Positions 34,798 through 64,000 of a stretch of DNA of 64,000 bases are shown piece after piece (within the stretch, counting starts at the first letter, position 1; each line of letters starts with the position of its first letter). Source of the stretch: a virus (lineage: Duplodnaviria > Caudoviricetes). Location: the IMG/VR virus record IMGVR_UViG_3300037424_001682, positions 14,115-78,114 of that record. One strand, 5' to 3'. The translations under genes were made by a program, and so were the position numbers. The notes beneath the pieces were generated by a model, which saw nothing but the letters and a program-made list of their open reading frames with translations, ran no database searches and was not told the origin of the DNA.

Positions 34798-37700
34798 TTA
34801 AACGCTATCCACATCAATATCGTTAATATTAAATTCTTCTGTTATATTCTCTTCATTTTTTTCACTATAGGTTCTAAGATGTTCTATAGATTTTGAATTA
34901 AGAGTGTCTTTTCCTTCTCCCAATAAATTATCAATTTCACCAACTAAATTTGATGCTTTTTTTATGTATTCTTGATTTCTTTCATTTAATTCTTCATTTA
35001 TTACTATGTTTTTGGTTGTTTCTTTTATTTCAGTGGCAGATTTACCATTTTTCACCAATCGATCTAATAAATCAACATATTGTCTTTCGCTTAGATATTT
35101 TTTACCATTAGAATCTCTAATTACACTATCAACTAAACGTTTTTGCCCCTCTTTATCATAAATATATTTACTTTCAACCGGTGGTAATTGTGCTGGACTT
35201 CCAAAATCTCCACCACCCATTCCTGATAAATCTTCTGGCCCACCTTCCGTACCTAACCCACCACCATCTTGTCCACCGCCTGCTTGTGGCAATTCTTCTG
35301 GTGGGACATCACCGATACCGTATTTTTTATCAATATCAGAGAACAAACCTGTTTTTCTAATAATAAGTGGTGAATCTTGTAATTCTTGTGCAACAGCACG
35401 TTCCATTCTTTGATTAAGATAATCATCAACAATATCTTTATCACTCCAACCAAAAAAGAATTTCTTAGCATTAGTATGAGACATCGCTGCAATGCCAGAT
35501 TCTGAACGAGTAAGTTCAGTATATACCTGTGCTTTTTGTTGCCACAATTCTGTTTTAAGTAAATCTTGTTGTGTACTAGGATTAGTTAATGAAAGTTGGA
35601 AATCATAAATTTCTTCTTTTTTAAATCCTAACAACATTAAATGAATTATGGCAATTTTATTTAATTCTTGAATTGTTGCTTGTTGAATTCTATTTATTTT
35701 TTTAGCAAAACGAACATCCATTTGAGCCATATTTTTACCATCACCAGCAGCTTGTTGATAACCTAAAAATGGTTTTGGTACACCAAGACCAGTAAATAAA
35801 TTATCTCTTAAATACTCGATATCGTGGATTTGATCTAAATTGGAATTTAAAGTAAAGATTCCTGAACTTAATGCAAATGTGTGATAATCAGTGAGTTGTT
35901 CTTTTCCATCAATTGTAATTGTACCCGTATCTTGTTTATCTTCTAACCATTCAATTGCTACAATTTTATGGTTATAACAAGGAATTTTGGATTTAAAATC
36001 TCTCCAATTTAAATAACCAAAATATTTTAACATTTTATCAATGTTATTTCTGGTTATGGCAGACATTTTATTTAATTGTTTATTATTTTGATTTAAAACA
36101 TTAAATTCTTCAATCCATTCAGAATTTTTTATATTAATTTTATTTTCAAGAATTAAATCAATTCTATTATATTCATTAACATAATCTATTAATAAATCAA
36201 GTAATTTATGAGAATATTTAATTGATTGTTTTTCTTTTATAATTTCACGTAAATTACTATTCTCCCATCGTAATTTGATGTGTTTAGCTTGTTTAATTCT
36301 ATTTTCTTTTAATGATTTAGTTTTACTTATTGATTTTCCTCTTTCTTTAATAATTGAATCTCTGTTTGGGTTATTACTGAATGTTTCAACTGCTTTATCT
36401 CTTGACATTAAAGAATTATTAATAGCAATATTTTTCTTAATAATAAGTTCTTCTTCACTTATATTATTCCAATATTTATTAATTCCTTTTTTTCCAACAT
36501 ATTTATGTGTGAATTCTTCGTGTAGATTTTTTTCTTTCATATAATTAGCAACCATGCGATGTGTAAAAACCCAATCCTGTTTTGAATGATCATAAATCAT
36601 TTCATATGGTTTTGCATATTTCTTATTGGATATTTTTTCTTCTTTTTTATTAAATGCCCACATAGATTCACCAATATTTAAATCTTTTGCTTCTTTTTTA
36701 CCATTATATTTTGTTGGAAATTTATGATCAGGAGTACAAGTAATTGTTTCACCATTATCTAATGTTAATTTTAAAACTTGTGCATTTTTTCTTGTAACAC
36801 CTGCCCAAGTAATTTTTCCTGGAACAATTAAACCACTTTTAGGATCAATTGAATATGACCATAATGATTTACCATCATTATATTCATTAATAATATCTTT
36901 TAATTCAAGACTTCTACCGTCAAGTAATTCAATTTTAGTATCTAATGCAAAACATGCTCCTTGTAAAGTTTCAATACCCGTTTGAACGTTTGCATTTCTT
37001 ACTGGTAAGAAAAAGTCTTCATCATTACCTAAAATATTAAATGTGTAATCTATTTGTCCAGAATCGGGATATATTTGTTGTTGTTTTTTAAATCTTGTTG
37101 CAATTTTATGAATATATGATTCAACATCATCTTCATCAATATTACCAACATCAATTTTAAATACACGTTTTTCGCCAGCACGTAATATACGATAAGTTAA
37201 CATTGCATCTTCAGCCATTACACAGTTATGTACAACAACACCTTCTGCAATAAAATTATGTTCATCATTATCAATTTCGATATCCCACACTTCACCCATA
37301 CCTATTGATTCTATAGAAGTAATTTTTTGAAAATCAACATTTGGAGTTTCATTTTCATATTTAATATATAAAGTATATGTTTCTTTTCTATCAATTACTT
37401 TATTAAAAGAATCTGACCATTCGCATCCTTTTCTTTTATGTGTAATTACATTACCCACTTTCAAATTACATGATTGGGATAAAACTCTTAATCTTTCAAT
37501 TAATCCTTTATTTGATGACGAATAATTACCATTAGAATCACAACCATCAGCATCAAAAATACCTCTAATAAACACTAATTTCCATTTTTTTGGCAATGAA
37601 AAAACCCAATCAGGAATTATTTTATTACTAAACCCTGTTTTAAAATCAAAAGATTTGATTATTTTTAAAAATTCAATTGAATGTGTTACATTATTCTCAT

Positions 37701-49461: not shown

Positions 49462-51555
49462 ATGGATTTAAATTGTTTAAATGGGATAATAACTGATAAT
49501 CTAGCAATACACATTGATTTAACTAACGAAAAATCGTGGGATTATAACACAGGATTTACTTCTGTTAGTTTAACTAAATGGAAAAATGCCGTATCTGACA
49601 ATCTTAATTTATATGATTTTGGATTAACAGGATATGATAACGGAAGAGTAGATAGAATGTACAGTGGATTAACGTTTACACCTCAAGATACCAACGTTAC
49701 TCTTTATCGCGTAGGTTATAATCAATGTATTTCACCATATAGTGGTGATACTATGTATGATTTGTATCCATTATCTGCCATCACTACAGAAGATGTTGGT
49801 AATTATTTTGCATTAAGTGGAGGATATTTACAAGGATTTTTTAAATTAGAAAAATACAATTTCGAACAATTTCCATCAAGATATAATTATGGCATAACTA
49901 TTGAAACAATAATAAATCTTTATTCTGATTCTTCTGGAATATTCTATCATATGGGTTTACGTGCTGAAGATAAATATAATGATTATTTTTCTGGCGAAAC
50001 AAAAAAAACAATTTCAACCCAGTATGAAACAGTAAATACTGGTGTTAGTGGTCCTAATGCAATTATTTCTGAAACAATCACTGGTTGGTCTGGTGTATCA
50101 ACAAGTGAAAATCATTATTTACATGAATATGTCGAAAAAGAAGTATTAAAAAACGCATTTGGTTCATTAGATGATGGATTGAATATGGAACAAGATTGGG
50201 TAAAAGTTAATCAATCCGCAAATACAAAAAATAACATAATTGCATTTGGTATTACTGACGATAAAAGATTATACTATCAATTAATTGATGGAAATAATTT
50301 AATAAGATTCAATACTTCATCAAATCAGTTAAATATAATAAGTGGATGGACAATAATCGCAATTTCATTTACCCCTGATGGACCAATAGCAAATTATGAT
50401 CCAACAATGCCTAATTGTTATCCAAGAAGAAAAGGTACATTATCATTTTATGTAAATGGAAGATTATTTTGGAAAGAAAAGGATTTTGATGAATTTTATT
50501 TTAGAGCAATTGGTAATGATAGAGAAAAACAATTAGGCGTACCATATAACATTTCATGGGGTGGTGGTAGTTACGGATTAAAACATTCTTGTCATTATGA
50601 TATTGATACGCATAATTTATATAGTGGTGAAACCACACAATATATTTTAGATTATTTTATCTCTAAATTATATCCTTTTAATATAAACCCACATACTGGT
50701 GCAACTTTTGGTGAAATTACATTTAGTGGTGATAGTAATACTTTTGTAGATCAAAATAACGATCCGATAACCGTATTTAGAGTAGATTATACTGGTACTA
50801 CAGCACAAACACCTTCAAATCAATATTATATCGAACATACCGAACCGTTTGAAATATTATCAAACAGAGAATATAATTTATCAGTAAAAATATATGATAC
50901 CGGTATTTTTAATAAATACGATAGTAATAATAGTGTTACTAACAATAGTATTTCATTAATTGTTTATGGTACAGAAGACATCGAAATAATTAGTGAAACA
51001 AAATATAAAAATCCTATAACACCATCCGATAATAATCTGGCAGCACAAAATGCACCATATCCAATTCTTTCACAAGAATATCAATATTATGATCCAATTA
51101 GTGGATTACTTATTAGTGGGCCAACCGGTTATCCTGCAAATGTTCCAGAAAATCAAGAACAAATAAATAGATTGGCAGCTATTGGTGTTGTAACTGGAAC
51201 AAATAAATGGAATACATTAAACTTGAAATTTAAATTAAAAGATAATAGTGCAGTACAAACAATTTTTATTGGATTATTAATTAATTCAAACGTAAATTTA
51301 AAAAACGATTTCACTTTCTTTATTAATGATTGGAAATATTCTGGTTCTGATGCATTAAATAAAGATATAAGAAAAGATGATTTATTAATTCAACAAAATT
51401 TTGATAAATCATTTAATGGTGGAATTCAAAAATTAAGAATTTATGATGTGGCTTTTAATTCACAGCAAATATTGCATAATGCAATTGTTGAATCACAAGG
51501 CAATTCTGCATATAATTTAATTATTCAAAGAGGGGGAAGAATTATATATAGATAA
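49462..51555 (+). CDS. Virion structural protein with LamG/concanavalin-like segments
   Basis: W..IAISF...L.FYVNG and FNGGIQKLRIYD.A patterns; late motif at about 49436. Confidence 0.6.
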   Translation: MDLNCLNGIITDNLAIHIDLTNEKSWDYNTGFTSVSLTKWKNAVSDNLNLYDFGLTGYDNGRVDRMYSGLTFTPQDTNVTLYRVGYNQCISPYSGDTMYDLYPLSAITTEDVGNYFALSGGYLQGFFKLEKYNFEQFPSRYNYGITIETIINLYSDSSGIFYHMGLRAEDKYNDYFSGETKKTISTQYETVNTGVSGPNAIISETITGWSGVSTSENHYLHEYVEKEVLKNAFGSLDDGLNMEQDWVKVNQSANTKNNIIAFGITDDKRLYYQLIDGNNLIRFNTSSNQLNIISGWTIIAISFTPDGPIANYDPTMPNCYPRRKGTLSFYVNGRLFWKEKDFDEFYFRAIGNDREKQLGVPYNISWGGGSYGLKHSCHYDIDTHNLYSGETTQYILDYFISKLYPFNINPHTGATFGEITFSGDSNTFVDQNNDPITVFRVDYTGTTAQTPSNQYYIEHTEPFEILSNREYNLSVKIYDTGIFNKYDSNNSVTNNSISLIVYGTEDIEIISETKYKNPITPSDNNLAAQNAPYPILSQEYQYYDPISGLLISGPTGYPANVPENQEQINRLAAIGVVTGTNKWNTLNLKFKLKDNSAVQTIFIGLLINSNVNLKNDFTFFINDWKYSGSDALNKDIRKDDLLIQQNFDKSFNGGIQKLRIYDVAFNSQQILHNAIVESQGNSAYNLIIQRGGRIIYR

Positions 51556-51590
51556 TGTTGACAATTAAATATTTTTAACATAAATTTGTA

Positions 51591-51824
51591 TTGATGAAAA
51601 AAATAAAATATATGACAATTTTAGAAGAAATTTTTTTTGGTTGGAAAAACTATATTTGGGCTAATAAAACAATTGAAGATTTAGCAAAAAAACGTATTCA
51701 AATTTGTGCCGATAAGACTATTTGTGATAAATTAAAAACAAATAAAAGATGTGCTATTTGTGGTTGTTATATGCCAGCAAAGGTAAGAAGCCCTAAATCT
51801 AAATGTCCTAGAAAATTTTGGTAA
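51591..51824 (+). CDS. Small Cys-rich (Zn-binding) protein
   Basis: C...C...C..CGCY..AKVR.....CP..FW. Confidence 0.65.
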   Translation: MMKKIKYMTILEEIFFGWKNYIWANKTIEDLAKKRIQICADKTICDKLKTNKRCAICGCYMPAKVRSPKSKCPRKFW

Positions 51825-52227
51825 TTAAAACGAAATATGAATCTTTATATGATTCTCCACTATATTTTTTATGTGGTTCAACACATATCTTAGTAAGCGG
51901 ATCTAACATTTTATAGTCACCTTCAATATCTATTGAAAGTTGCCCATCTAATAAAATAAAACATTCCATATAGTCGTTAGATCGTGCCTTTATTTTAATA
52001 CCTTTAGGAATAACCCCTAAAAATATTTTTTCTTCTGTATCATTTAAATTGGCAATCTTTTTTATTTTGATATTATCATAAACACTATCTTCCCATTTAG
52101 AAAAAAACTTAATAACAATACCGTCTTCTAATTCATGAACAACTGGAAACGTATCAATCATTAGTTCTTTTTTTTCGTAAATGATTTTTTTTGCGCTTTC
52201 AAATGCTTCTTTTAATTCATTAATCAT
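51808..52227 (-). CDS. Cupin-like protein
   Basis: ECFILLDGQL...KYSG pattern. Confidence 0.5.
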   Translation of the reverse strand: MINELKEAFESAKKIIYEKKELMIDTFPVVHELEDGIVIKFFSKWEDSVYDNIKIKKIANLNDTEEKIFLGVIPKGIKIKARSNDYMECFILLDGQLSIDIEGDYKMLDPLTKICVEPHKKYSGESYKDSYFVLITKIF

Positions 52228-52849
52228 TTTTTAATGTTCAGCGTATATATTACAATCATTTTTTGTGTTCTCTATTAATTCAACTAAATATGAAACATTT
52301 TTTACAATTTAATAGATGTTATTTTTTTAATATATTAACACATATTTTTATATAAATAGTTATAAAAAAACATAAAAATTAAATGTAACCCAATAAAATA
52401 TTTATCCGTATATATTATTAACATGAAAAATATTATGAAATTATTTGTACAAAGTTGTGATAGTAGAGAATGTAGAAAAAAACATAAAAATCAAATAAAC
52501 GATATGTGTGAAGCAGTTACAACAATTCATTATTATAATCCCAACACAAAAGAAGTTATTTGTACAGAATGTGGAAAATCATATAAATTGTCTAATTAAG
52601 CAACATTAATTTTTCTATATCCATTATCGATTGCCCATTGAGCAAGATTTTTTATTCTATTTAATATTGGTAAAATATAATCTTTACCTTTAATATTTGA
52701 ATATATATTTTTATGTGTAGTGGTATCTCTTGTTGTTTTATCTGGATAACCAAACAACATATTCTCAGCAACATTTATTTTCATAATCAAATCAACCGCA
52801 TCATAGGAATTTTCAGCACAATTAAACTATTCCATAGATCAAAATATTG

Positions 52850-52922
52850 TTGTCCCATCAGGATTTGAACCTGAAACCTTCTCCTTCAAAGGGAGTTGCA
52901 CTGCCAGTTGTGCTATAGGACA
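52850..52922 (-). tRNA. tRNA-Gln(UUG)
   Basis: Acceptor TGTCCTA/TGGGACA, loop CTTTGAA, T-arm TCAGG TTCAAAT CCTGA. Confidence 0.85.
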
Positions 52923-52951
52923 AAATATTTCTGTAATATATTAAACATTTG

Positions 52952-53023
52952 GGTGTAAGGACGGTTTCGATCCGTCTACTCCGTGTTCACGGCACGGTAT
53001 GTTACCATTACAATACAAACACC
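52952..53023 (-). tRNA. tRNA-His(GUG), atypical copy
   Basis: G-1:C73, loop CCGTGAA (C33), T-loop ATCGAAA, two acceptor mismatches. Confidence 0.6.
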
Positions 53024-53025
53024 AT

Positions 53026-53103
53026 ATGGACGCAAATTCTAACTCGAACAGAATATTTCTCAGCCATCATGCCAAGCGTGTTATCGTATTACACTAAACC
53101 ATC
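53026..53103 (-). pseudogene. Degenerate tRNA-like sequence
   Basis: D-arm-like TAGTGTAATACGATAACAC and TTCGAGT loop, anticodon arm not recognisable. Confidence 0.4.
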
Positions 53104-53189
53104 ATAATAGGAAGTATATTACACTTTTTTGATGTTTTTTCATAAATCAAAACAAATAACAACTAAATGAGCAATATATCACACTTTTT

Positions 53190-53261
53190 GGTGTAAGAGG
53201 GGAATCGAACCCCCATATACATGAGTCACAATCATGCGCTTTACCATTAAGCTACCTACAC
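53190..53261 (-). tRNA. tRNA-His(GUG)
   Basis: Acceptor GTGTAGG/CTTACAC, C73, loop TTGTGAC; position -1 is T in the DNA. Confidence 0.85.
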
Positions 53262-53378
53262 AGTCAATATGAAAAGATTCGAACTTTTGAATGAAGATTC
53301 CTTGTCTTCAAACACCCAACATAATTTTATTTTGCGTTCCTTCAAAATTACTTTTATGTTTACATATTGAGTTATTTG

Positions 53379-54233
53379 TTAAATTGAATTATAATAATCT
53401 AAGAATTTTTTAATTTCATTTTCAATATATAATTTTCCTTTTTTTGTATTAATACTTTTCCAATGTATTCTATATACATTAAAACCATTTTTTTTTAAAA
53501 TATTATCTCTTTTTTTATCGTGTTCTTTTCTATATCTATGCTGTTTACCATCAATTTCCAAATCAATATTTTTATTAGAAATATAAAAATCTAAAAAGTA
53601 TGAATATGGTTCATTAACACCCAAATCTTTTTTTAAGATAGAATAATTATGTTGATAATCAATATTATTATTTTTTAATACTTTAATGAAAATTTTTTCT
53701 GGATAACTAATAATATTTCTAGTTTTCCATCCCTGATGTCTACCTTCTTTAATAATTCTTTCCATAGAAATTTTATTCATTACTGATTTATGTTTTTTTC
53801 GACAATTTTCTGAACAACATTTTGAATTACTAAATGTACCATTTTTAATTCTATTAACATTAAAAGTTTTTTTACAGTAAACACAATTTCTTTTTTTTGT
53901 TATATATCTTGAACAATATTCTTTCTTTTTACCTGCTAATGATAAACTAATTTTCTTTTTTGTTTCATCAGAAAGTTTTCTTTTTTTATTATTAAACTTA
54001 GCAGAACAAGAAGAATTACAAAATTTTTTAATGTTAGAATTTAATTCTTTACCACATTCAAGACAATATTTAGAATCTTTTACCCAATGTGAAATATCAA
54101 CATTAAATTTAATTATCCATTGATTTAATTTTTCATAAGAATGTTTATTTGAATAACCAAAATATTTTAAATTAAATTCATTTTTAGATTTACTGTTTTT
54201 AATACAATTAATAATCTTTTCTTTAGTACTCAT
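53379..54233 (-). CDS. Homing-type endonuclease (Zn finger + DUF559/Vsr-like PD-(D/E)xK) inside tRNA cluster
   Basis: KFCNSSCSAKFNN; SYPEKIF; YFLDFYI...LEIDGKQH; D..RD..L. Confidence 0.8.
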   Translation of the reverse strand: MSTKEKIINCIKNSKSKNEFNLKYFGYSNKHSYEKLNQWIIKFNVDISHWVKDSKYCLECGKELNSNIKKFCNSSCSAKFNNKKRKLSDETKKKISLSLAGKKKEYCSRYITKKRNCVYCKKTFNVNRIKNGTFSNSKCCSENCRKKHKSVMNKISMERIIKEGRHQGWKTRNIISYPEKIFIKVLKNNNIDYQHNYSILKKDLGVNEPYSYFLDFYISNKNIDLEIDGKQHRYRKEHDKKRDNILKKNGFNVYRIHWKSINTKKGKLYIENEIKKFLDYYNSI

Positions 54234-54333
54234 ATTTTTTTTTAATATAAATACTATTAGTTGTCTAAAAACTTAGTTTTGAACTAAAATTATTTCAAAG
54301 AACATATAATAATCTTAAACTCAGATAATTACG

Positions 54334-54408
54334 TCAGGATGGTGAGATTCGAACTCACGAAAACTAGTTCCCAAAACTAGTCCATATGGCCAACTGTGGA
54401 ACATCCTG
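54334..54408 (-). tRNA. tRNA-Pro(UGG)
   Basis: C1:G72, A73, loop TTTGGGA with G37. Confidence 0.88.
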
Positions 54409-54481
54409 ATATTTTGTCCAGCGTATTTACAAGTGCACTTGTATATGAGATGCATACAGACAGTAATCTCACTTTACTTTG

Positions 54482-54553
54482 TATAGTAAGCGGGAATCGA
54501 ACCCGCTACCCGATGGGTCCAAGCCATCGTTGCTACCTTAGACTCTCTACTAT
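54482..54553 (-). tRNA. tRNA-Pro(UGG)-anticodon, atypical body
   Basis: Loop CTTGGAC in CGATGG/CCATCG stem; T-arm GCGGG TTCGATT CCCGC; acceptor ATAGTAG/TTACTAT lacks C1:G72. Confidence 0.6.
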
Positions 54554-54564
54554 ATTTTAGACAC

Positions 54565-54593
54565 AAAAAAACCCCGAACTTTCGAACGGGGTC
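54565..54593 (-). terminator. Attenuator terminator of the Pro/His/Gln tRNA cluster
   Basis: Minus strand ACCCCG-TTCGAAAGTT-CGGGGT followed by T run, 11 nt before first tRNA. Confidence 0.85.
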
Positions 54594-54624
54594 TTGATAG
54601 TTAGATTGAATGTCTCCAAAATAG

Positions 54625-54699
54625 CTAAAGCATAGAACGCCCGTTCAACAGTTGTGGCTGATGTTGGGGTTGATGTACTATGTTAACTATTTTATTCAT
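54625..54699 (-). CDS. Leader peptide MNKIVNIVHQPQHQPQLLNGRSML (24 aa)
   Basis: Translated by hand; control codons CAT CAA CCC CAA CAT CAG CCA CAA at 54675-54652; antiterminator GAACGGG at 54646-54640. Confidence 0.85.
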   Translation of the reverse strand: MNKIVNIVHQPQHQPQLLNGRSML

Positions 54700-54760
54700 T
54701 TTTAATGCTTTTTATGTTTTTATATATTATTTGCACCAATCATGTGGTACATAACAGGTG

Positions 54761-54791
54761 CAAATATAGTAATTCTATTTTTACTTGTCAA
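54761..54791 (-). promoter_or_regulatory. Early/host-sigma promoter TTGACA-N17-TATATTTG driving minus tRNA cluster
   Basis: TTGACA 54791-54786, TATATTTG 54768-54761. Confidence 0.8.
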
Positions 54792-54969
54792 GTGTTTTCA
54801 AAAAAACTTTTGACTTTTTTTTAGAGAACCTTCAACTTAACTTTTCAAGCATCCGAAAATTCTCTTTGACTATACCCGATAATCACGGACTTAACTTAAT
54901 TTTATTTTTTTAAGCAATAGCCATTATAATTATAAATACGCATCAATAAAAAAATGGTTACTATTTTAC

Positions 54970-55000
54970 TTGACTTTTTTTTAGTTTTTTTTTAACTTTA
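54970..55000 (+). promoter_or_regulatory. Divergent early-type promoter TTGACT-N17-TAACTTTA
   Basis: Same spacing as other sites, one mismatch in -7 element. Confidence 0.5.
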
Positions 55001-55186
55001 CAAAAAAAATAGAATAATGGATACAGTATGAAATAATATTGAATATTATTCCTTTTTTAAACATAAAGTTTAAATGGGTTTACTGCTAAACCCTCTATTC
55101 CCTCCATTAATGCTTCGGGAACTGCTTTTCTCATAAATACTAATAAAATAAAAAAAAAATATAATTCTGAATAAAAAAATAATATA

Positions 55187-55561
55187 ATGGATACATTAAA
55201 TGTTTTAATTTTAATATTCGCGCTTCATTTTATTGGAGATTTTATATTTCAAACAAGAGAAATGGCTGAAAATAAAAGCAAGTCAATTTATTGGTTGACT
55301 TATCATGTATTTAATTATTGTTTACCTTTTGTTCCTATAGCATTCTTAATTGGATTTGATGTTCAATATATAGAATTCTTATTTGTTTTATTTATTACTC
55401 ATTGGTTAACAGATTTTTTCACATCAAAAGCAACTTCTTATTTTTGGAAAAATAAAAAAGAAAAATTGTTTTTTTCTATGATTGGTTTTGATCAATTAAT
55501 ACATACTATTACATTAATAGAAATTTACAAATATTTCATTCATCCATTCGTATTTATATAA
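55187..55561 (+). CDS. DUF3307 membrane protein
   Basis: ALHFIGDFIFQT..MA..K; H; THWLTD; GFDQLIH. Confidence 0.85.
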   Translation: MDTLNVLILIFALHFIGDFIFQTREMAENKSKSIYWLTYHVFNYCLPFVPIAFLIGFDVQYIEFLFVLFITHWLTDFFTSKATSYFWKNKKEKLFFSMIGFDQLIHTITLIEIYKYFIHPFVFI

Positions 55562-55571
55562 AAATGTAAAA

Positions 55572-56057
55572 ATGGATATGAACACTAAAAAGTTAATCAA
55601 AATAATAAACGAAGAAATAAATAGGTTTGATTATCTTAGTAGAGATATTAAAGAGGCTTCCGACGCTAAAAAATCTGTGGTGGATTCTAAAGATTTTAAA
55701 GTAAATTTTGTGAATGATATTTTAACAAACAATACTGATGCAATTAAATTCTCAGAAGTCGTTGGTTCAAAAAAAGATAATGAAAATCCAAATGATATAT
55801 TTAATGTAGGTAATAGTGAATTATATTATGAAATACATTTGTTTTATGAATTTTTAGGTAAAGAATATGAATTAACATTATTGTTAGAAGGCAGAAATGT
55901 TAAAAGTGAACCAAAAATTGATTATAATTCTATAGATACTATATTAACCCTAGATGAAAATGGTGAAGAAGTTGATCTTGATTGGTTAAAAACCGATAAA
56001 GAAATGTATAGTAGATTCATTCAATCTTTAATTAAAAATGATTTTGACGAAGATTAA
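55572..56057 (+). CDS. Hypothetical protein
   Basis: 161 aa; GTATTTATA motif just upstream. Confidence 0.55.
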   Translation: MDMNTKKLIKIINEEINRFDYLSRDIKEASDAKKSVVDSKDFKVNFVNDILTNNTDAIKFSEVVGSKKDNENPNDIFNVGNSELYYEIHLFYEFLGKEYELTLLLEGRNVKSEPKIDYNSIDTILTLDENGEEVDLDWLKTDKEMYSRFIQSLIKNDFDED

Positions 56058-56098
56058 ATGTTTTAATTTGTCCATAATAAAAAAACTTGTGAGATTAC

Positions 56099-56129
56099 TT
56101 GCAAGTTTTTTTTGTTTTTTGTATCTTGC
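56099..56129 (+). promoter_or_regulatory. Early-type promoter TTGCAA-N17-TATCTTGC
   Basis: TTGCAA 56099-56104, TATCTTGC 56122-56129. Confidence 0.55.
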
Positions 56130-56152
56130 ATAAAAAAAATAAATTTAAACCT

Positions 56153-56455
56153 ATGAATGGAAATAATATAAATTTAATTTCTGGATCATCTATTGGTGAT
56201 GATGATATTATTGTTAATATGTATATGCTTATAATTGTGTATAAAACTGAGACATATGTTCATTATTTGGAAGAATCGGCATTAATTAAAGAATTTGAAG
56301 ATGAAAATAATGAAGAATTGTGGATAGGAATTGATTTTTACAATAAATTTCCTTTTGGCGAATTTGAAAAAAATAAAGCTATTCTATTTAATATTAAGAA
56401 TAAAAAAATTGTTGTTCCAAAATTTAAAAAATCATTTAAAGTTGAATTATATTAA
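56153..56455 (+). CDS. Hypothetical protein
   Basis: Start re-assigned to ATG 56153; listed TTG start is the promoter -35. Confidence 0.5.
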   Translation: MNGNNINLISGSSIGDDDIIVNMYMLIIVYKTETYVHYLEESALIKEFEDENNEELWIGIDFYNKFPFGEFEKNKAILFNIKNKKIVVPKFKKSFKVELY

Positions 56456-56526
56456 ATATTTGGACGTTAAACATAACCTAAAATCAGAAAATGCGTATAT
56501 ATATTCAGTAATAAGAAGACTTTATA

Positions 56527-56928
56527 ATGAAAATTGCGAAAAAATATAAATTATTTCTTGATGACATCCGTGATCCACGTGAGGCATATCCATATACAGG
56601 ATTTCAAGAATTCTTAAATGATGATTGGAAAATCGTGCGTAATTATGACCAATTTGTTGATTATGTTACAAAAAATTGGAAAACGCATAAAGCATTTCCT
56701 ACTCTAATAGCATTCGATCACGATTTATCGATAGAAGACATAATGAAAACAGATAATTTCAAAGAAAAAACTGGAATGGATTGTGCTAAATGGCTGGTTG
56801 ATTTTTGTATTGACAATAATTTAGAACTACCAAATTGGATTTCTCATTCAATGAACCCTGCTGGTAGAGATAACATAAATTTATTTTTAAAGAATTATCT
56901 TAAATTATCAAAAAAAAATGGAAACTAA
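56527..56928 (+). CDS. Cyclic-phosphate-processing receiver (Rec)-like domain protein
   Basis: KLFLDDIRDP; VRNYDQF; IAFDHDL; TGMDCAKWL; HSMNPAGRDNI. Confidence 0.8.
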   Translation: MKIAKKYKLFLDDIRDPREAYPYTGFQEFLNDDWKIVRNYDQFVDYVTKNWKTHKAFPTLIAFDHDLSIEDIMKTDNFKEKTGMDCAKWLVDFCIDNNLELPNWISHSMNPAGRDNINLFLKNYLKLSKKNGN

Positions 56929-57095
56929 ATTAAGTGAAAATGTAATTAAAGTTTTAAACGAAAACGAAAAAAAAGGGGCTAATTATGGTAATAGAATAAT
57001 TAATAACGATGGGGTTATTTTTGACTATTCAAATAATGGTTATCATGTTAGAGTTGAAAACATAAAATAATAATTAAATATAATTTCTAAATATT

Positions 57096-57410
57096 ATGTT
57101 AACGGAAGGCAAAAATAAAACAAATGTAAAACCACAATATTTAAAATGTGTTTGTTGTGGTTTTAGTGCACCTGAATATAAATTTGAAAACGGTTTTTGG
57201 TTTTTTAAAAAAAGAAAATGTCCAATTTGTGGATCGCATTTTTATGATAAAATAGAAAGAAAGAAAACTACTCCCGCTCCACAAGGTAGTAAATTGAGAA
57301 CGGACGATAAAAGATGTTTAGAATTTATTTATAATCGATTGATTAACGTTTATAATGAAAACTCAAATTATGATTATATGATAAATTTTAAAAAAATTAT
57401 TGACAAATGA
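57096..57410 (+). CDS. Small Zn-ribbon protein
   Basis: CVCCG and CPICG motifs. Confidence 0.6.
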   Translation: MLTEGKNKTNVKPQYLKCVCCGFSAPEYKFENGFWFFKKRKCPICGSHFYDKIERKKTTPAPQGSKLRTDDKRCLEFIYNRLINVYNENSNYDYMINFKKIIDK

Positions 57411-57700
57411 AAAAGACAATATCTTATAATAAAGCAGAAAAATCATTATGTGTTTTTTATAATTTTAATGATGAGCACATAAGAACATTAATTGTTATTT
57501 ACGAAAACGGCAAAGAATGCGAATTTGAAAAACGTGATCCAATGATAGATGAAGATGTTGACGGTAATGAAATATCTTGGGCAATTTGTGATGAACTAGT
57601 CGAAATGGGTTTATTAAATGAAGATGAGGAATCGTTCGATGTTTTTTATGAAATGACTAATGATGGAATAGAATTGGTTTATGAATTAATAAATAAATGA
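57407..57700 (+). CDS. Hypothetical acidic protein
   Basis: 97 aa, coupled to upstream ORF. Confidence 0.5.
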   Translation: MKKTISYNKAEKSLCVFYNFNDEHIRTLIVIYENGKECEFEKRDPMIDEDVDGNEISWAICDELVEMGLLNEDEESFDVFYEMTNDGIELVYELINK

Positions 57701-57765
57701 TTAACTTATTTAAGAAATTTTTCAGATAAAACTAAAGAAGCATTTAAGGAAAATAAGAGATAATT

Positions 57766-58146
57766 ATGAGTTGTAATAGTAGAATTTGTGGATATTCATT
57801 AAAATTAAATGAAAATTTACAAAATATGGATAAATTAAAAGAAATATCAGAAATATTGGGATATAGTTGGGATGATGATTGTGAATGGGATGAAATTATG
57901 TTTAGTGAATGGGATAAATATATAAATAAATGGAAACCACATAAAGATTATTTTGGTAATTTAGGATTTATTTATACGAAAGACTATGAATATGATGCCG
58001 ATGATGTTATATTTTATTGTGAAATAAATGAAATAGAATTAGCATTAAAAGATTATATTGATAAAACTAATATAATTCCTGATAATAATATAAAATCATT
58101 TGCTATTATTTATTATAATGGAAGCGATTGTCCTTTTAAATATTAA
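57766..58146 (+). CDS. Hypothetical protein
   Basis: 126 aa ORF. Confidence 0.55.
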   Translation: MSCNSRICGYSLKLNENLQNMDKLKEISEILGYSWDDDCEWDEIMFSEWDKYINKWKPHKDYFGNLGFIYTKDYEYDADDVIFYCEINEIELALKDYIDKTNIIPDNNIKSFAIIYYNGSDCPFKY

Positions 58147-58148
58147 CT

Positions 58149-58628
58149 ATGAAAAAAATACTAAAATTTTTAATTAAAAATAAATTAACATTAATATCTA
58201 TAGGTTTTTTTGCTATTGCTGTGTTATTATTAGCATTCGGACCTATTCTTATCGATAAGAAATTTAAAAACTCTAAAACTTATCCTAAGAAACATTATAT
58301 ATATGAAGAAAAGTTTGATCTAAGTACTGTACCTTCTGGATATGTCATTTGGCGACATGGAGTTCCAAAATATCCCATGAATTTTAATTATGCAGATTCT
58401 GCAACAAAATATGAATATTTTGATATTGGAATATTTGACAATAATAATGGAATTATATATCAAGTTAGAGTTCCATTCTACGCTATAGGTATTTTTAGAC
58501 AAGAATATGTCAATACAGATATGTATAGAAAAAAAAACTCTATTCCAAAATTCCCTAAAAAACAACCTAAAGAGGAAAAAAAAGAAGATTTAAAAGATGA
58601 TTATAAATTAATTTTATTCTATAAATAA
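58149..58628 (+). CDS. Membrane-anchored hypothetical protein
   Basis: N-terminal TM LISIGFFAIAVLLLAFG. Confidence 0.55.
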   Translation: MKKILKFLIKNKLTLISIGFFAIAVLLLAFGPILIDKKFKNSKTYPKKHYIYEEKFDLSTVPSGYVIWRHGVPKYPMNFNYADSATKYEYFDIGIFDNNNGIIYQVRVPFYAIGIFRQEYVNTDMYRKKNSIPKFPKKQPKEEKKEDLKDDYKLILFYK

Positions 58629-58645
58629 AAAAAATACGGAAAAAC

Positions 58646-58676
58646 TTGACATTTTCCGTAACCTTTTTTATCTTTG
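58646..58676 (+). promoter_or_regulatory. Early/host-sigma promoter TTGACA-N17-TATCTTTG driving plus tRNA cluster
   Basis: TTGACA 58646-58651, TATCTTTG 58669-58676; -35 flanked by 9-bp inverted repeat. Confidence 0.82.
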
Positions 58677-58728
58677 CAACGTATTTAAAGTTAAACAATA
58701 TAAAAAAAAAATAAAAAGTTCGAAAATA

Positions 58729-58848
58729 ATGAAAACATTAAACGACATAGTAGTATTAGTAGTAGATGCAGTCGCAGCCATGTTATGGTTGGAAGATGAT
58801 GCAGAACGCATGTCTTGTCGGGTAATGAATAAGATTACAATTGAATAA
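58729..58848 (+). CDS. Leader peptide MKTLNDIVVLVVDAVAAMLWLEDDAERMSCRVMNKITIE (39 aa)
   Basis: Translated by hand; 19 control codons at 58750-58806; GTCGGGT at 58817-58823 duplicates terminator 3' arm. Confidence 0.85.
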   Translation: MKTLNDIVVLVVDAVAAMLWLEDDAERMSCRVMNKITIE

Positions 58849-58870
58849 AGAGTAATCAAAAAGAAATTCG

Positions 58871-58898
58871 AAACCCGATCTAAACAGTCGGGTTTTTT
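58871..58898 (+). terminator. Attenuator terminator of the Leu/Ala/Val/Met/Glu/Asp/Trp cluster
   Basis: AAACCCGA-TCTAAACAG-TCGGGTTT followed by T run. Confidence 0.85.
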
Positions 58899-58978
58899 GT
58901 TTTATACATAATTAAAAGAAATGAAAAGAGAAAATATATATAGCGAAGGTTTATGTGGCACAGAGAGTGACTTAAAAC

Positions 58979-59066
58979 GCCTCTGTGGTGGAATTAGTAG
59001 ACGCGTCAGGCCTAAACCCTGATGATTCCGTAATGGGTCGTGCAGGTGCAACTCCTGTCAGAGGTA
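58979..59066 (+). tRNA. tRNA-Leu(UAA)
   Basis: GCCTCTG/CAGAGGT, long variable arm, loop CCTAAAC (C33), T-loop TGCAACT. Confidence 0.8.
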
Positions 59067-59122
59067 CTAAAATATATTATATCTAATATAAACGTTATTT
59101 GACATATTGTTATTATTAAAAT

Positions 59123-59198
59123 GGGGGCGCATGTTCCAAAGCCTTGGCGATGAAAACTTGCAATTTTCGTGTGGTGGATGCGATTTCCACCGTCTCCA
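59123..59198 (+). tRNA. tRNA-Ala(UGC)
   Basis: G3:U70 in GGGGGCG/CGTCTCC, A73, loop CTTGCAA, T-loop TGCGATT. Confidence 0.8.
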
Positions 59199-59231
59199 CA
59201 AAAAAGTTCTTTGACATGTTGTTATTATTAT

Positions 59232-59305
59232 ACACCCATAACTCAATTTGGTAGAGTGGCATTTTTACATGATGTTGGTTCTTGGTTCAAGTCCAAGTGG
59301 GTGGA
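59232..59305 (+). tRNA. tRNA-Val(UAC)
   Basis: Loop TTTACAT, T-arm CTTGG TTCAAGT CCAAG, A1/G72 mismatch. Confidence 0.8.
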
Positions 59306-59406
59306 CTCATACAGGGATAGTATAATGTTAGTACACACCCATCGCAAGGTGAAATAGTCGGTTCAATTGTACGAATAAAGTTTCAGATGATAAGTTTAAT
59401 ACATAT

Positions 59407-59480
59407 CGGGGTGTAGCCAAGCGGCCTAAGGCACTTCTCTCATAAGGAAGGATTCGTGGGTTCAAATCCCATTACCCCTA
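59407..59480 (+). tRNA. tRNA-Met(CAU)
   Basis: Loop CTCATAA; C1/T72 mismatch is initiator-like but anticodon stem lacks three G:C pairs; Met versus lysidine-Ile not resolvable. Confidence 0.75.
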
Positions 59481-59540
59481 CAAAATAAAATAAAAATATG
59501 TGATTTTTTCAATAATATGGAAATATTGTATATTTTAAAT

Positions 59541-59611
59541 GCTGCCGAATGCAATGGGTGAGCAACCAGCCCTTCACGTTGGTGTACAGGGTTCGAGTCC
59601 CTGCGGCAGTA
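59541..59611 (+). tRNA. tRNA-Glu(UUC)
   Basis: Stem CCAGC/GTTGG, loop CCTTCAC (C33), T-arm CAGGG TTCGAGT CCCTG. Confidence 0.75.
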
Positions 59612-59755
59612 GACAATTATAGTTAAACCACCTGCACGTGGTAATTGTTGCACAACCAATTGGTTGACCAAGAGTTTAACAATGTTCTTTAATCCCTACC
59701 TTTGGTAGGAATTCTACAAAGGTTTTAAATGTTGAGCCCATAATCAACATTTAAT

Positions 59756-59828
59756 CGTCTGCGAAGTGTAATGGTTTTGCATGGCATCCTGTCACGGTGA
59801 AGGAGGGGTTCAATTCCCACGTGGACGG
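59756..59828 (+). tRNA. tRNA-Asp(GUC)
   Basis: CGTCTGC/GTGGACG, G73, loop CTGTCAC. Confidence 0.8.
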
Positions 59829-59863
59829 CAAAAAGAAATTGTTCTTTGAAATATTGTTTTTAT

Positions 59864-59938
59864 ACACTCGTAGCTCAGTCTGGTCAGAGCGGTAGGTTCC
59901 AGCCCTATGTGTCGTGCGTTCGAATCGTACCGAGTGTG
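59864..59938 (+). tRNA. tRNA-Trp(CCA)
   Basis: ACACTCG/CGAGTGT, G73, loop TTCCAGC. Confidence 0.88.
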
Positions 59939-60012
59939 CTCTCCAAAAACATAAATAAATTTAATAAATAGATGATGTTTTTGGAAACCCATAGTATTTA
60001 TAATAAAATATT

Positions 60013-60687
60013 ATGGAAAAAAAATGTTGTAAGTGTGGTTTATCTAAAGATTTAAAATCTTTCAGTAAAAACAAAAAAAAGAAAGATGGTTATAATTCTA
60101 CTTGTAAAGAATGTCATTCTAAATATAGAAAAGAACATTATAAAATAAATAAAGAAACCGTATTAAAACAGGTTATTAAATATAAAGAAGATAATCCTGA
60201 AAAATATATAACAAAATTTGCAAATAGAAAACCAAATAAAAAAGCGGGAAGAATAATAAAAGAAAAATGTTCTAATCCAAAATGTAATGTAATTGTTTAT
60301 ATTTCACTAAATGATATAAAAAATAAAACAAAAAGATATTGTTGTGATGAATGTAAACGCTGGAACTATCATCCATTAAATAGATATTTATATGATATAA
60401 AAAGGAGAGCAAAAAAAGCTAATTATAGTTTCAATTTAGATTTCAATTTTATAAAAGATTTACTTGAGGTTAAACAAAACAATAAATGTGCTATTACTAA
60501 TGTTGATATTGAATTTGGTAATAAAACAATCTTATATGAAACACCTTCATTGGACAGAATAGATAGTAAGAAAGGATATACGAAGGATAATGTTCAATGG
60601 GTTATGTTAGGTATTAATTATATGAAAATGAAATTTAGTAATGAAGAATTAATTAAAACGTTGAATTTAATTAAAGAAAATTATTAA
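60013..60687 (+). CDS. HNH/His-Cys-type homing endonuclease inside tRNA region
   Basis: CCKC...CKECH; CAIT; TPSLDRIDSKKGYTKDNVQWV...N.MK. Confidence 0.8.
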   Translation: MEKKCCKCGLSKDLKSFSKNKKKKDGYNSTCKECHSKYRKEHYKINKETVLKQVIKYKEDNPEKYITKFANRKPNKKAGRIIKEKCSNPKCNVIVYISLNDIKNKTKRYCCDECKRWNYHPLNRYLYDIKRRAKKANYSFNLDFNFIKDLLEVKQNNKCAITNVDIEFGNKTILYETPSLDRIDSKKGYTKDNVQWVMLGINYMKMKFSNEELIKTLNLIKENY

Positions 60688-61314
60688 TTAACACCAGAAG
60701 AAGCAATTAGAGTAAAATTAAAATATTTGGTTAACGATAAATCTTTTGTTAGTGCAGTTAAACATCTAAAAGATTTAATTTACTTAGAAACGAATAAAGC
60801 AGATATTATTGAAGCTATTAACAATAGTTCTGTTTTCAGTGATAGTGACAATATAAAAGAAAAATAAAATAATATTATATCTTTTTTGTAACCTAAATTA
60901 AATAAATTACGTATATAAAGATACAAATTGAGGGAAACCTAATCACCGGTAACTCGTAAGTGTTAACGTGGCACGTAGGCGTACTTGATTGATGTTCGTT
61001 TTAAAAATGAATGCAATTCAAGAGCATACTCGGTACAAGGCGACAATTTGTATTTTAATTATTAAATTATTTGAAAAATGAGTAACGAAAAAGATTTAAA
61101 AATCAAAAAATTAAAAAAATTAGTGTCTGTTTTAAATGATGCTTTGCTTGAAGCAAATAATATACTCAAAAAAAATAGATTACCAGAAATAACAAAGGAT
61201 ATTTCTGATATATATTAAAAACAATCTGGCATATCTAATAAAAGGTTCTACCAAACTAAGTAAAAAGATATTCGGATGACATCAATTGTGAAGTGGTAGC
61301 GTAGCATTGATGTT

Positions 61315-61386
61315 TAAATAGTCGTCTAAAGGGATTAAGACACCCCCGTTAAGGGGGAAATACGGGTTCGAATCCTGTCTATTTAG
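61315..61386 (+). tRNA. tRNA-like gene with 5-nt anticodon loop (GTTAA); identity undetermined
   Basis: Perfect TAAATAG/CTATTTA acceptor, G73, D and T arms, CCCCC-GTTAA-GGGGG. Confidence 0.55.
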
Positions 61387-61533
61387 CAAAAACTATTGCG
61401 ATGTAGTTGAAATAGGAAAGTCATCGTTTCCAACATATCAAGGGGTAATAGGCCATTATCTTTTGTTGGATGAAAGAAATGTTTAAAACTGATCCGAGTA
61501 CGTATAGGTGAGGTTTAGTTTTATAGACTAGAT

Positions 61534-61590
61534 GGCGACAACACCCTCGTATAGAGAGGGAGATTGCAGGTTCGATTCCTGTCGTCGCTA
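61534..61590 (+). ncRNA. Truncated tRNA-like element (anticodon and T arms intact)
   Basis: CCCTC-GTATAGA-GAGGG, GCAGG TTCGATT CCTGT; GGCGAC can pair with GTCGCT. Confidence 0.4.
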
Positions 61591-61678
61591 CTAATATAAA
61601 CATATACCCTTTTAAGGAGAAATTAAAACGTTTTGGCAGTAAAGTCTGCAATGTTTATTTAAAGTATTTATAATATAT

Positions 61679-61768
61679 TGCGGGGTGGAGAAGTTGGTAT
61701 CTCGCCTGTCTCATAAGCACGGAGTCCTGAAATACGGTTTAACGCTGGTTCGATTCCAGCCCCCGCTA
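61679..61768 (+). tRNA. tRNA-fMet-like (CAU) with long variable region
   Basis: TGCGGGGTGGAG...TGGTATCTCG 5' half like initiator tRNA, 1/72 mismatch, loop CTCATAA, about 21-nt variable region. Confidence 0.65.
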
Positions 61769-61955
61769 CTACTGATTCCCTCTTGTCCCTGTAAATCAAA
61801 CTTGAGGGTAGAGTATATATATTATATTGAATAGCATAGACGATCAATAAAACGCTGTAATTATTAGTTACTCCAAAAAAAAAGATATATATGGAATCTT
61901 TGAGTAATTACAAAGGGTGGAGAATCGGGAATCCCTCATATTCAATATAACAATT

Positions 61956-62288
61956 GGGGCATACTGGATTTGACAGTAGGTGATTAGTAAACAGTGCAAG
62001 TACAGGGAAGTTACTCTACCTGTTAATAATTGGTAACGAACAATAAGTGAAGCAGAAATGCTAATGGCTGCTTAATCCGTAAGGATTTTGTGGTATCAGA
62101 GAGTAAGGGTACAAGGTATCCTCTCTCATTTATAATTATGAACTTCTTTTTTTGTTTTTAGAAGATTTAATAAAAACAATTTGATGCAGGAATAAAATCC
62201 AAAGCAGTTATGCTTTAAATAACTAAACTTGTGAATGACTGTTTATTTATTACACTATTGGAGATGGGTTCGATTCCCATATGCTCCA
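61956..62288 (+). ncRNA. ssrA: tmRNA
   Basis: GGGGCAT/ATGCTCC acceptor with G3:U70, GGATTTGAC 5' motif, T-arm ATGGG TTCGATT CCCAT, tag-like region ending GCT GCT TAA. Confidence 0.9.
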
Positions 62289-62352
62289 CAAGTAATTGAT
62301 TATAAGTTATTTATAATAATAATAATAACATAGAAAAAAGTAAAAGAAATGG

Positions 62353-62553
62353 GTGATGGAAACCATATTGAGAAGTGTGGCTATTGGATACGCAAGGTTG
62401 TTTCCAGAGTTACTTGATCGTTATCATAAAGATGGCGATCAAACTATAGTAAAATTGATTGCTGAAAAATCAAAAAATAAATTTGAAAAAAATATTGTAG
62501 ATATTTGTAAATTAAAAGAAGATATTGTATTTTTACTGAAAAATGGACTATAA
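62353..62553 (+). CDS. Small hypothetical protein
   Basis: 66 aa ORF; start uncertain. Confidence 0.45.
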   Translation: MMETILRSVAIGYARLFPELLDRYHKDGDQTIVKLIAEKSKNKFEKNIVDICKLKEDIVFLLKNGL

Positions 62554-62591
62554 TGATCTAAAAAATAGATAAATTAAAAATTTTTAATACA

Positions 62592-62831
62592 ATGACAACT
62601 AACGAAATAAAAAAAGAATTATATAAACAAAATCCAAAAGCTAAATTTGATTTCATCAGGCAAGGATTAGCATATTATAAAGCAAAAATAACTGTAGAGA
62701 ATGAAGGTCAAATACCTTTCAATAAATTTATAACTTTTGAAGTTCCAATTTCTGATATGGGAAGTGCTGATTTCTTTGCTGAAATAGATGCAAAGCATCT
62801 AAATAGGTGGATTGTAAACGAAGAAAAATAA
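62592..62831 (+). CDS. Hypothetical protein
   Basis: 79 aa ORF. Confidence 0.6.
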   Translation: MTTNEIKKELYKQNPKAKFDFIRQGLAYYKAKITVENEGQIPFNKFITFEVPISDMGSADFFAEIDAKHLNRWIVNEEK

Positions 62832-63046
62832 TTTTGAAATATTATTGCGATTCTCATAGACATTTAGTATGTTTGCCATACAGTATTGAAAATCTACATA
62901 AAATGGCAGTAGATTTGAATATTAAAAAGGTGTGGTTCCACAAGAACCATTATGACATTCCAAAAAGAAGAATTGAAGAAATAATGGAAAAATGTGAAAT
63001 TGTTTCAAGTAAAGAAATTGTAAATATTATAAATGGAAAAAACTGA
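62807..63046 (+). CDS. DUF4031-like protein
   Basis: HLVC...SIENLH.MA..L.IK..WFH..HYDI; true start likely a few codons downstream. Confidence 0.7.
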   Translation: MDCKRRKIILKYYCDSHRHLVCLPYSIENLHKMAVDLNIKKVWFHKNHYDIPKRRIEEIMEKCEIVSSKEIVNIINGKN

Positions 63047-63344
63047 AATTAAAAATCTTGAAGATGCATTTGCATGGTTGGATTCCTTAAATGTTCAAGA
63101 CGTTCAAGAATGGTTAAATAATGATGAAGATAAAGCAGTTGGTCTTGCCCATCATGGTTTTGGTACTATGATTCGCAATGAATTAGATTTGTGGCATAAT
63201 GGTTCGATTGTCTCATATTTTAATAATTTAGGTATATATCATGCTGATGATATGAGTGGGATTATTTTAACTTCTTTTCATAGAAATAAAAATGGTAAAG
63301 AACTAAATATTGATGAGCAAGTAAATAAATATGTTGATTATTAG
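63033..63344 (+). CDS. Hypothetical protein
   Basis: HHGFGTMIRNELDLW ... GIYHADDMSGIILTSFHR pattern, 103 aa. Confidence 0.6.
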   Translation: MEKTEIKNLEDAFAWLDSLNVQDVQEWLNNDEDKAVGLAHHGFGTMIRNELDLWHNGSIVSYFNNLGIYHADDMSGIILTSFHRNKNGKELNIDEQVNKYVDY

Positions 63345-63393
63345 GAAAAAGTTGATCCTAAAGTAAATAAGGAAAAATATAAATAAAAATATC

Positions 63394-63687
63394 ATGAGTT
63401 GGTTTTTATCGGGTGATAATTATTGGGATGGGGGTAAAAAAAAATTGGAAGGTGTTCATTTAAGAATTAAACATAACACCAATAATGATGTTGTAAATAA
63501 AATATGTGAAAAATTTAATACAACAATATTTAATATTGGATATGTTAAATTAAATAAATATATCGAAAGCATTGATAGTTTTGAAATAAAATTATCGATT
63601 AATAAAAATAAAGAATTTTTGATTATTCCTTATAGTCCTGATTGGGTTTGTGAAGGATATTTAACAGAGATTTTAATTTTAAATTAG
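63394..63687 (+). CDS. Hypothetical protein
   Basis: 97 aa ORF. Confidence 0.5.
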   Translation: MSWFLSGDNYWDGGKKKLEGVHLRIKHNTNNDVVNKICEKFNTTIFNIGYVKLNKYIESIDSFEIKLSINKNKEFLIIPYSPDWVCEGYLTEILILN

Positions 63688-63836
63688 GTGAATATGATTA
63701 TTAATTACAAAATTTTCACATTTTAACAAAAACGAGTGGCGGTGGGTGTTAAAACATTTCAATAAGATTATTATCAAATAATATCAATTTTTATTGAATA
63801 TTTCAAAATATTTTAGTATTTATAATAAATTAAATT

Positions 63837-64000
63837 ATGAAACTATCTAAATGGGCAAAAGAGAAGGGTGTATCCTATATAACAGCATATCGATGGGCTA
63901 AAGCGGGTGAAATTGAAGGTGTCCAATTTATGAAATCTGGCACTATTTTAGTAAATGAAACTAAATCAAATAATAAAAATAATCCAAATGTAGTTGTTTA
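63837..64000 (+). CDS. tnpA: Second IS607 TnpA, 3'-truncated by window edge
   Basis: MKLSKWAKEKGVSYITAYRWAKAGEI... MerR-like HTH typical of IS607 recombinases; AGTATTTATA upstream. Confidence 0.75.
   Translation, partial: MKLSKWAKEKGVSYITAYRWAKAGEIEGVQFMKSGTILVNETKSNNKNNPNVVV

Follow-up and report, generated by a model that had tools for sequence, protein, structure and literature searches.

Probable leader-peptide attenuation of a seven-tRNA operon in a large phage

The window considered here is the whole 64,000-nucleotide (nt) stretch formed by bases 14115-78114 of a 78-kilobase viral contig in IMG/VR (IMGVR_UViG_3300037424_001682; Duplodnaviria, Caudoviricetes). With its completeness estimated at 27%, the contig represents only part of the genome of a large phage. 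Two arrays of transfer RNA (tRNA) genes in the window, operon 1 on the minus strand and operon 2 on the plus strand, each lie behind a promoter, a short open reading frame (ORF) and an intrinsic terminator. An initial annotation of this DNA proposed that the short ORF of operon 2 encodes a leader peptide through which transcription of the tRNA genes is attenuated, and that operon 1 follows the same logic.

Leader module and tRNA array of operon 2

Operon 2 begins, as had been claimed, with a promoter at 58646-58676 (+), composed of TTGACA, a 17-nt spacer and TAnnTTTG, which fits the consensus of the Bacteroidota sigma-A type; it also scores 10 of 12 on a sigma-70 scan. Five sites in the window conform to the pattern TTGACA-N17-21-TAnnTTTG against 0.34 expected, and two of the five are the promoters of the operon 1 and operon 2 leaders, whose promoter consensus is the best in the window. 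A hairpin of 9 bp with T runs on each strand (58635-58660) overlaps the -33 element of the operon 2 promoter and is likely the bidirectional terminator of the upstream gene at 58149-58628; it is not conserved in L124, the contig that carries the one relative of this leader (see below). The presumed transcript start is followed, 46 nt downstream, by the start codon of the 39-codon leader ORF (58729-58848, +), and the 5' untranslated region between them is A-rich, unstructured on folding and without a Shine-Dalgarno sequence. Neither this 39-amino-acid (aa) peptide nor the 24-aa leader peptide of operon 1 has a match among Pfam or PHROG families. Codons 8-26 (58750-58806, +), exactly as the annotation listed them, specify only Val, Leu, Asp, Ala, Met, Trp and Glu; we refer to them as the control run. 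The terminator reported behind the leader was also found (58870-58903, +), with a T run after its stem (58870-58896). It is modest, with about -8 kcal/mol and six core pairs, and sits between the leader and the tRNA genes, as the attenuator family requires.

The tRNA array extends from 58979 to 59939 (+). Seven tRNAs had been claimed, and the evidence for them is uneven. Five are called by ARAGORN at default settings: Leu(UAA) at 58979-59067, Val(UAC) at 59232-59306, a tRNA with a CAU anticodon at 59407-59481 (called as Met, an Ile2 identity being possible), Glu(UUC) at 59540-59612 and Trp(CCA) at 59864-59939, all on the plus strand. Rfam also finds these genes, except tRNA-Glu, which has no Rfam match at E<1. 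The sixth, Asp(GUC) at 59756-59829 (+), is sub-threshold, appearing only when the ARAGORN threshold is relaxed and reaching 27.9 bits in Rfam against a gathering score of 29 bits. The seventh, an Ala(UGC) tRNA-like gene at 59123-59198 (+), was read by eye and is called neither by ARAGORN (default or relaxed) nor by the Rfam tRNA model; in Rfam it gives partial matches only, to the acceptor and T arm of transfer-messenger RNA (tmRNA). The gene has the acceptor stem, the anticodon stem with a UGC loop, the T stem and a G3:U70 pair, and its D arm is not canonical. A copy of this gene is present in Cellulophaga phage phi38:1 (NC_021796, 35419-35493), where it is unannotated, missed by ARAGORN and Rfam alike, and placed directly after a leader terminator. 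When the two copies are compared, 97% of cells are paired and eight pairs differ on both sides. Because of these eight compensatory pairs we accept 59123-59198, on comparative sequence grounds, as a real Ala tRNA-like gene. In phage phi4:1, a canonical tRNA-Ala occupies the same first position of its block.

Other features lie between these genes. A 24-nt direct repeat containing TTGACA occurs at 59095-59118 and 59207-59230 (+), just upstream of the Ala-like and Val genes, with 0 expected by chance, and a looser copy was seen by eye ahead of tRNA-Trp, at about 59840-59865. The repeat may act in processing or as an internal start, or may be left over from a duplication. A degenerate tRNA-like remnant with a broken cloverleaf lies at 59307-59406.

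The claim that 19 consecutive codons are limited to the seven downstream specificities is borne out. Codons 8-26 form an unbroken run of this kind, with control codons tied to the cargo as in known attenuators, and the next longest such run among the 223 six-frame ORFs of 30 aa or more in the window is 8. In the long ORFs of the window, 33% of residues belong to the seven amino acids, and the probability (P) of a run of at least 19 in an ORF of this length is about 1e-8. The anticodons of the array can read 17 of the 19 codons under standard wobble, the exceptions being GTC and GCC, which need four-way reading by U34. The annotation had further taken the use of TTA and TTG for Leu as a match to the UAA isoacceptor. 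We dropped this argument as uninformative, because 78% of the Leu codons of the phage are TTA or TTG anyway.

Competing helices in the leader RNA

The segment 58817-58823, just past the control run, was said to mimic the 3' arm of the terminator, and it does complement the 5' arm. The resulting helix is longer than proposed, extending beyond a 2x2 internal loop by five more pairs (58826-58830 with 58866-58870). The antiterminator thus consists of region 2 (58817-58830) paired with region 3 (58866-58879), the latter being the 5' arm of the terminator with five upstream bases and common to the antiterminator and the terminator. A possible region 1 (58736-58747) pairs with region 2 in the ribosome-free, full-length minimum-energy fold (z-score -4.6). 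In such folds of both operons segment 2 is taken up by a partner further upstream and the terminator hairpin is present, which is the classical four-segment arrangement.

The effect of a translating ribosome was modelled by masking the RNA from -15 to +12 of the A site, with the ribosome placed at every codon, and folding the RNA 3' of it with the 3' arm of the terminator left out. In operon 2, the 5' arm of the terminator is paired with 58817-58830 when the A site is at any of codons 2-26; half of this pairing is lost at codon 27, and it is gone from codon 28 on. The antiterminator (58817-58830 with 58866-58879) has a probability of 0.95 both with the ribosome in the middle of the run and with it at the last run codon, and the mid-run value was reached by 0 of 300 dinucleotide shuffles. 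In operon 1, the mid-run probability is 0.98, again reached by 0 of 300 shuffles, and the antiterminator persists up to codon 15-16, where the control run ends, and is lost at the codons that follow. Since in these folds the antiterminator is lost right past the last control codon, the end of the run would be the point where a translating ribosome starts melting it; in the model, this spacing is the geometry of known attenuators. When the whole operon 1 leader was compared with shuffles without a ribosome, the antiterminator had a probability of 0.06, which looked negative. This result is not counted against the switch, because the upstream partner holds segment 2 in that state, as in trp, and the relevant test is the one with a stalled ribosome.

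Recurrence of the design and its genomic setting

In operon 1, which had been presented as a second case of the same logic, the promoter, a matched leader, the terminator and an antiterminator were all found, on the minus strand throughout. The promoter (54761-54791) has the same consensus as that of operon 2. The leader ORF of 24 codons (54625-54699) contains His-Gln-Pro-Gln twice in codons 9-16 (54652-54675) and, past this run, the 5' strand of the antiterminator as placed by folding (54635-54643). An intrinsic terminator (54565-54596) follows the ORF, and tRNA-Pro begins about 14 nt past the T run. The cargo (52849-54553) comprises two Pro(UGG) genes, a homing-endonuclease ORF (DUF559/NUMOD3; 53379-54233), His(GUG), a second His(GUG)-like gene and Gln(UUG). 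The His(GUG)-like gene (52951-53022) is a low-scoring call whose loop reads C at position 33, and a possible Pro(AGG) at 53263-53334 within the array is also low-scoring. His, Gln and Pro make up 7.8% of residues, so that P for the eight-codon run is about 2e-8. The two leaders do not match each other's cargo, the longest runs against the other set being 0 and 2. A degenerate pattern of the operon 1 control run matched more than 119 unrelated low-complexity coding repeats, and none of these precedes tRNAs on the same strand.

In a set of 1.84 billion representative proteins, the operon 2 leader has one relative, with 74% identity, on L124, a contig of 645 nt. L124 keeps the promoter, the leader, the antiterminator strand (segment 2) and the terminator. 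The terminator stem is conserved, one change in it making the pairing perfect, and the run has two changes within its conserved core, both of them synonymous. A degenerate DNA pattern of this core found no match in viral or metagenome contigs.

More extensive recurrence is seen in two cultured phages, Cellulophaga phi38:1 (NC_021796) and phi4:1 (NC_021788). Each has three tRNA blocks, and all six blocks lie behind a promoter, a short ORF and a terminator. The in-set runs of the leaders are 11, 16 and 13 codons long in phi38:1, and 11, 16 and 10 in phi4:1. In one phi38:1 leader, the 16-codon run consists of exactly Tyr, Ser, Asn, Trp, Phe and Cys, the six specificities of the seven tRNAs in its block. 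A matrix of leaders against arrays is diagonal, each leader matching its own array. The match extends to isoacceptors: Arg codons follow the isoacceptor in 4 of 4 cases (AGA where the block has Arg(UCU), CGA or CGT where it has Arg(ACG)), and Ser is written with both TCN and AGY in leaders whose block holds both Ser isoacceptors. Operon 2 merges tRNAs that are found in three different blocks of phi38:1 and phi4:1, and its leader follows the new mix. Leader and array content thus covary, which we regard as the strongest single argument for attenuation.

The spacing of the parts is also similar among these loci. In each of the nine leaders, the matching triplets share the frame of a start codon situated 45-55 nt from the promoter, an in-frame stop precedes the terminator, and the terminator has a T run. 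In operon 1 and in every one of the six cultured-phage blocks, no more than about 20 nt separate the start of the T run from the first tRNA (9-18 nt; 9-12 nt in the cultured-phage blocks). This leaves no room for another promoter, and to judge from the sequence read-through is the only way in which the first tRNA of these seven arrays can be made. As controls, nine tRNA arrays from four unrelated viral contigs were examined, and no comparable upstream ORF was found there (best P 0.07).

Several small annotated coding sequences in the two cultured phages look mis-called, namely 35253-35360, 36714-36845, 37283-37402 and 38163-38294 in NC_021796, and 1690-1809 and 3818-3919 in NC_021788. Some of them correspond to leaders, with the annotated start falling within the promoter; others are on the opposite strand of a leader or overlap unannotated tRNA genes (Tyr, Ser, Trp, Cys, Pro, Glu).

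As to the genomic setting, the DNA of the window has weak similarity only to marine Flavobacteriia phages (Cellulophaga, Olleya) and occurs in sediment metagenomes, with no RNA run among the data sets in which it was found. DNA contigs from four sediment runs yielded only identical fragments and other loci with the same promoter, and so no informative variation. The long ORFs of the window stay open with the standard code. The 159-aa gene upstream of operon 2 has no relative among viral contigs, and a gene of the homing-endonuclease type (endonuclease VII/HNH; 60013-60687, +) stands beside the operon 2 array. A third RNA cluster (61315-62291, +) is without a leader or terminator module upstream. 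It includes a tRNA-like gene that ARAGORN names tRNA-Stop, with anticodon UUA (61315-61387, +; 43.5 bits with the Rfam tRNA model), a CAU tRNA of 91 nt whose extra arm is long (61679-61769, +), and a phage tmRNA (61956-62291, +; 69 bits in Rfam) whose tag ends in two Ala.

Probable attenuation, its alternatives and its significance

What is observed, in the sequence and in the computations made on it, comprises the parts with their order and spacing, the agreement of codons with anticodons, the competing helices and the recurrence of the design in other phages. Every sequence-level feature that ribosome-mediated attenuation calls for, from a strong promoter and an A-rich, unstructured 5' untranslated region to the tRNA genes behind the terminator, is found in both arrays of the window. 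The reading proposed initially is thereby supported: we put the probability that operon 2 is a phage tRNA operon under ribosome-mediated (leader-peptide) transcription attenuation at roughly 0.8. The phage probably makes the seven operon 2 tRNAs only when ribosomes read the leader codons slowly. From the arrangement we infer translation of the leader, stalling, conditional read-through and a biological trigger, as follows. Host RNA polymerase would start at 58646-58676 and transcribe the 39-codon leader with a ribosome trailing it. If aminoacyl-tRNA for codons 8-26 (Val, Leu, Asp, Ala, Met, Trp or Glu) were scarce, the ribosome would stall within the run, leaving 58817-58830 free to pair with 58866-58879; the terminator hairpin would be blocked, and the polymerase would read into the seven tRNA genes. 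With fast decoding, the ribosome would pass over 58817-58830 to the stop codon, the terminator (58870-58903) would form and no tRNAs would be made. Because the product is the sensed molecule, the loop would amount to direct negative feedback on tRNA supply, and because a stall at any control codon would act alike, the leader would serve as an OR gate with seven inputs. For Pro, His and Gln, operon 1 (54791 to 52849, -) would work in the same way. The trigger may be a mismatch of codon supply with the host, or host nucleases that cut tRNAs.

A number of observations weigh against this reading. The 19-codon run depends on the Ala-like and the sub-threshold Asp genes, and shrinks to 7 without Ala and to 5 if only tRNAs called at default settings are admitted. 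In a blind scan with naive array limits, P for operon 2 is only 4e-3 to 1e-2; such a scan under-detects the modules of the window because of the missed tRNAs and the endonuclease gene inside operon 1. In L124, two other changes put Ile and Gly codons into the run, and the terminator is followed by an HNH endonuclease gene (414-644), at which the contig ends, so that no tRNA is seen on it. (The best PHROG match of this gene is an HNH-headed family named RNA ligase.) The antiterminators of all three phi4:1 leaders are no better than those of shuffles. With the ribosome on the stop codon, region 2 of operon 2 is left uncovered and arm pairing persists at a probability of 0.40 (0.04 in operon 1); in the model, termination in operon 2 would then rely on a ribosome still between regions 2 and 3, or on pairing of region 1 with region 2. 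Finally, about 75 nt separate the operon 2 terminator from tRNA-Leu, and the TTGACA-bearing repeat precedes the Ala-like and Val genes, so that starts independent of the attenuator may exist within this array.

Three other explanations have to be considered. The leader might be translated and matched to its cargo while the controlled step is not the terminator; control could instead lie in the stability or processing of the precursor, in Rho-type polarity, or in a report on decoding quality. The codon match argues for sensing by translation and is silent on the step that is controlled, and the terminator of operon 2, as noted, is modest. However, a T-run terminator stands behind each of the nine leaders, and the competing helix begins at the edge of the footprint of a ribosome on the last control codons, a spacing that control elsewhere would leave without purpose. 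We therefore hold a different controlled step to be quite improbable. Alternatively, the leader might be an ordinary gene for a small protein, with a promoter and terminator of its own, the tRNAs being made constitutively through leaky read-through or internal starts, and the codon match being a chance property of a hydrophobic-then-acidic peptide. Such a gene would account for the 74% conservation of the peptide in L124, where an HNH endonuclease gene and not a tRNA comes next, for the drop of the run to 7 without the Ala-like gene, and for the 24-nt repeat ahead of two tRNAs. But HNH genes are mobile and are also found inside or beside the arrays of the window itself, the leader peptides belong to no protein family, and Val and Ala are rare residues in an AT-rich phage. 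Moreover, the same coincidence would be needed again in operon 1 and in six blocks of two phages, with differing sets and none cross-matching, which makes an ordinary gene very improbable.

The third explanation dispenses with the ribosome. The anticodons of the tRNAs would pair directly with the codon run in the leader RNA and steer the terminator in the manner of a T-box, and the run does list the complements of the anticodons. However, an Rfam search of 50000-64000 at E<1 returned only tRNA, tmRNA and chance-level matches, with no T-box or other such family. The triplets in all nine leaders keep the frame of a start codon and end at an in-frame stop ahead of the terminator, and 19 adjacent specifiers would be without structural precedent. 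Direct sensing of this kind is scarcely credible. Attenuation by a translating ribosome thus remains the preferred reading.

Among known systems, the closest are the multivalent attenuators of enterobacteria, the ilvGMEDA leader with Leu, Val and Ile codons and the thr leader with Thr and Ile codons. Like these, operon 2 has a short leader ORF with control codons for several amino acids and an antiterminator and terminator that share a strand, and any stall is predicted to give read-through. Unlike them, its cargo is tRNA genes rather than biosynthetic enzymes, so that the output would be the sensed molecule; up to seven amino acids are listed here (nine in one phi38:1 block), and the element is phage-borne, with a Bacteroidota-type promoter and no Shine-Dalgarno sequence. 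The four-segment logic is that of trpL, hisL, leuL and pheL, segment 1 sequestering segment 2 without a ribosome in operon 1 and possibly in operon 2. Those leaders respond to one amino acid through one repeated codon, whereas the leader described here would sense a set equal to its cargo. The attenuator of Escherichia coli pheST, with Phe codons in the pheM leader, is similar in that its target is a gene of the translation apparatus and that charged-tRNA supply feeds back on decoding capacity; it is chromosomal, has one input and controls a synthetase gene, unlike the tRNA genes controlled here. T-box riboswitches also monitor tRNA status through a choice between terminator and antiterminator, but they bind uncharged tRNA ribosome-free with a Stem I, a specifier loop and a T-box motif, none of which was found here.

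The leader-peptide attenuators that have been described all control, to our knowledge, genes of amino-acid biosynthesis or synthetase genes; the cargo here, seven tRNA genes, is of neither kind. Full-text literature searches turned up no account of tRNA genes controlled by a leader peptide. We know of control of bacterial tRNA genes only as global, by growth rate and the stringent response, and of no described case where the transcription of particular tRNAs responds to the supply of those same tRNAs. If true, operon 2 would be the first example of tRNA genes whose transcription is under specific feedback from decoding itself, with classical attenuation rewired so that the sensed molecule is the product and up to seven inputs converge on one switch. 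The idea is directly testable, because the same design is verified in phi38:1 and phi4:1, two cultured phages with a culturable host. It is also of use for annotation, since leader content predicts cargo, and here it pointed to the Ala tRNA-like gene that the programs had missed.

On balance, we think it likely that Bacteroidota phages carry an on-demand controller of tRNA supply that resolves isoacceptors, in which each block is transcribed only upon a stall on its own codon-list leader. Such a controller would detect codon mismatch with the host, or cleavage of tRNAs by defence nucleases, and supply exactly the missing tRNAs. It would account for how phages rich in tRNA genes keep from making tRNAs they do not need, and would offer them a ready mechanism against host defences that cut tRNAs.

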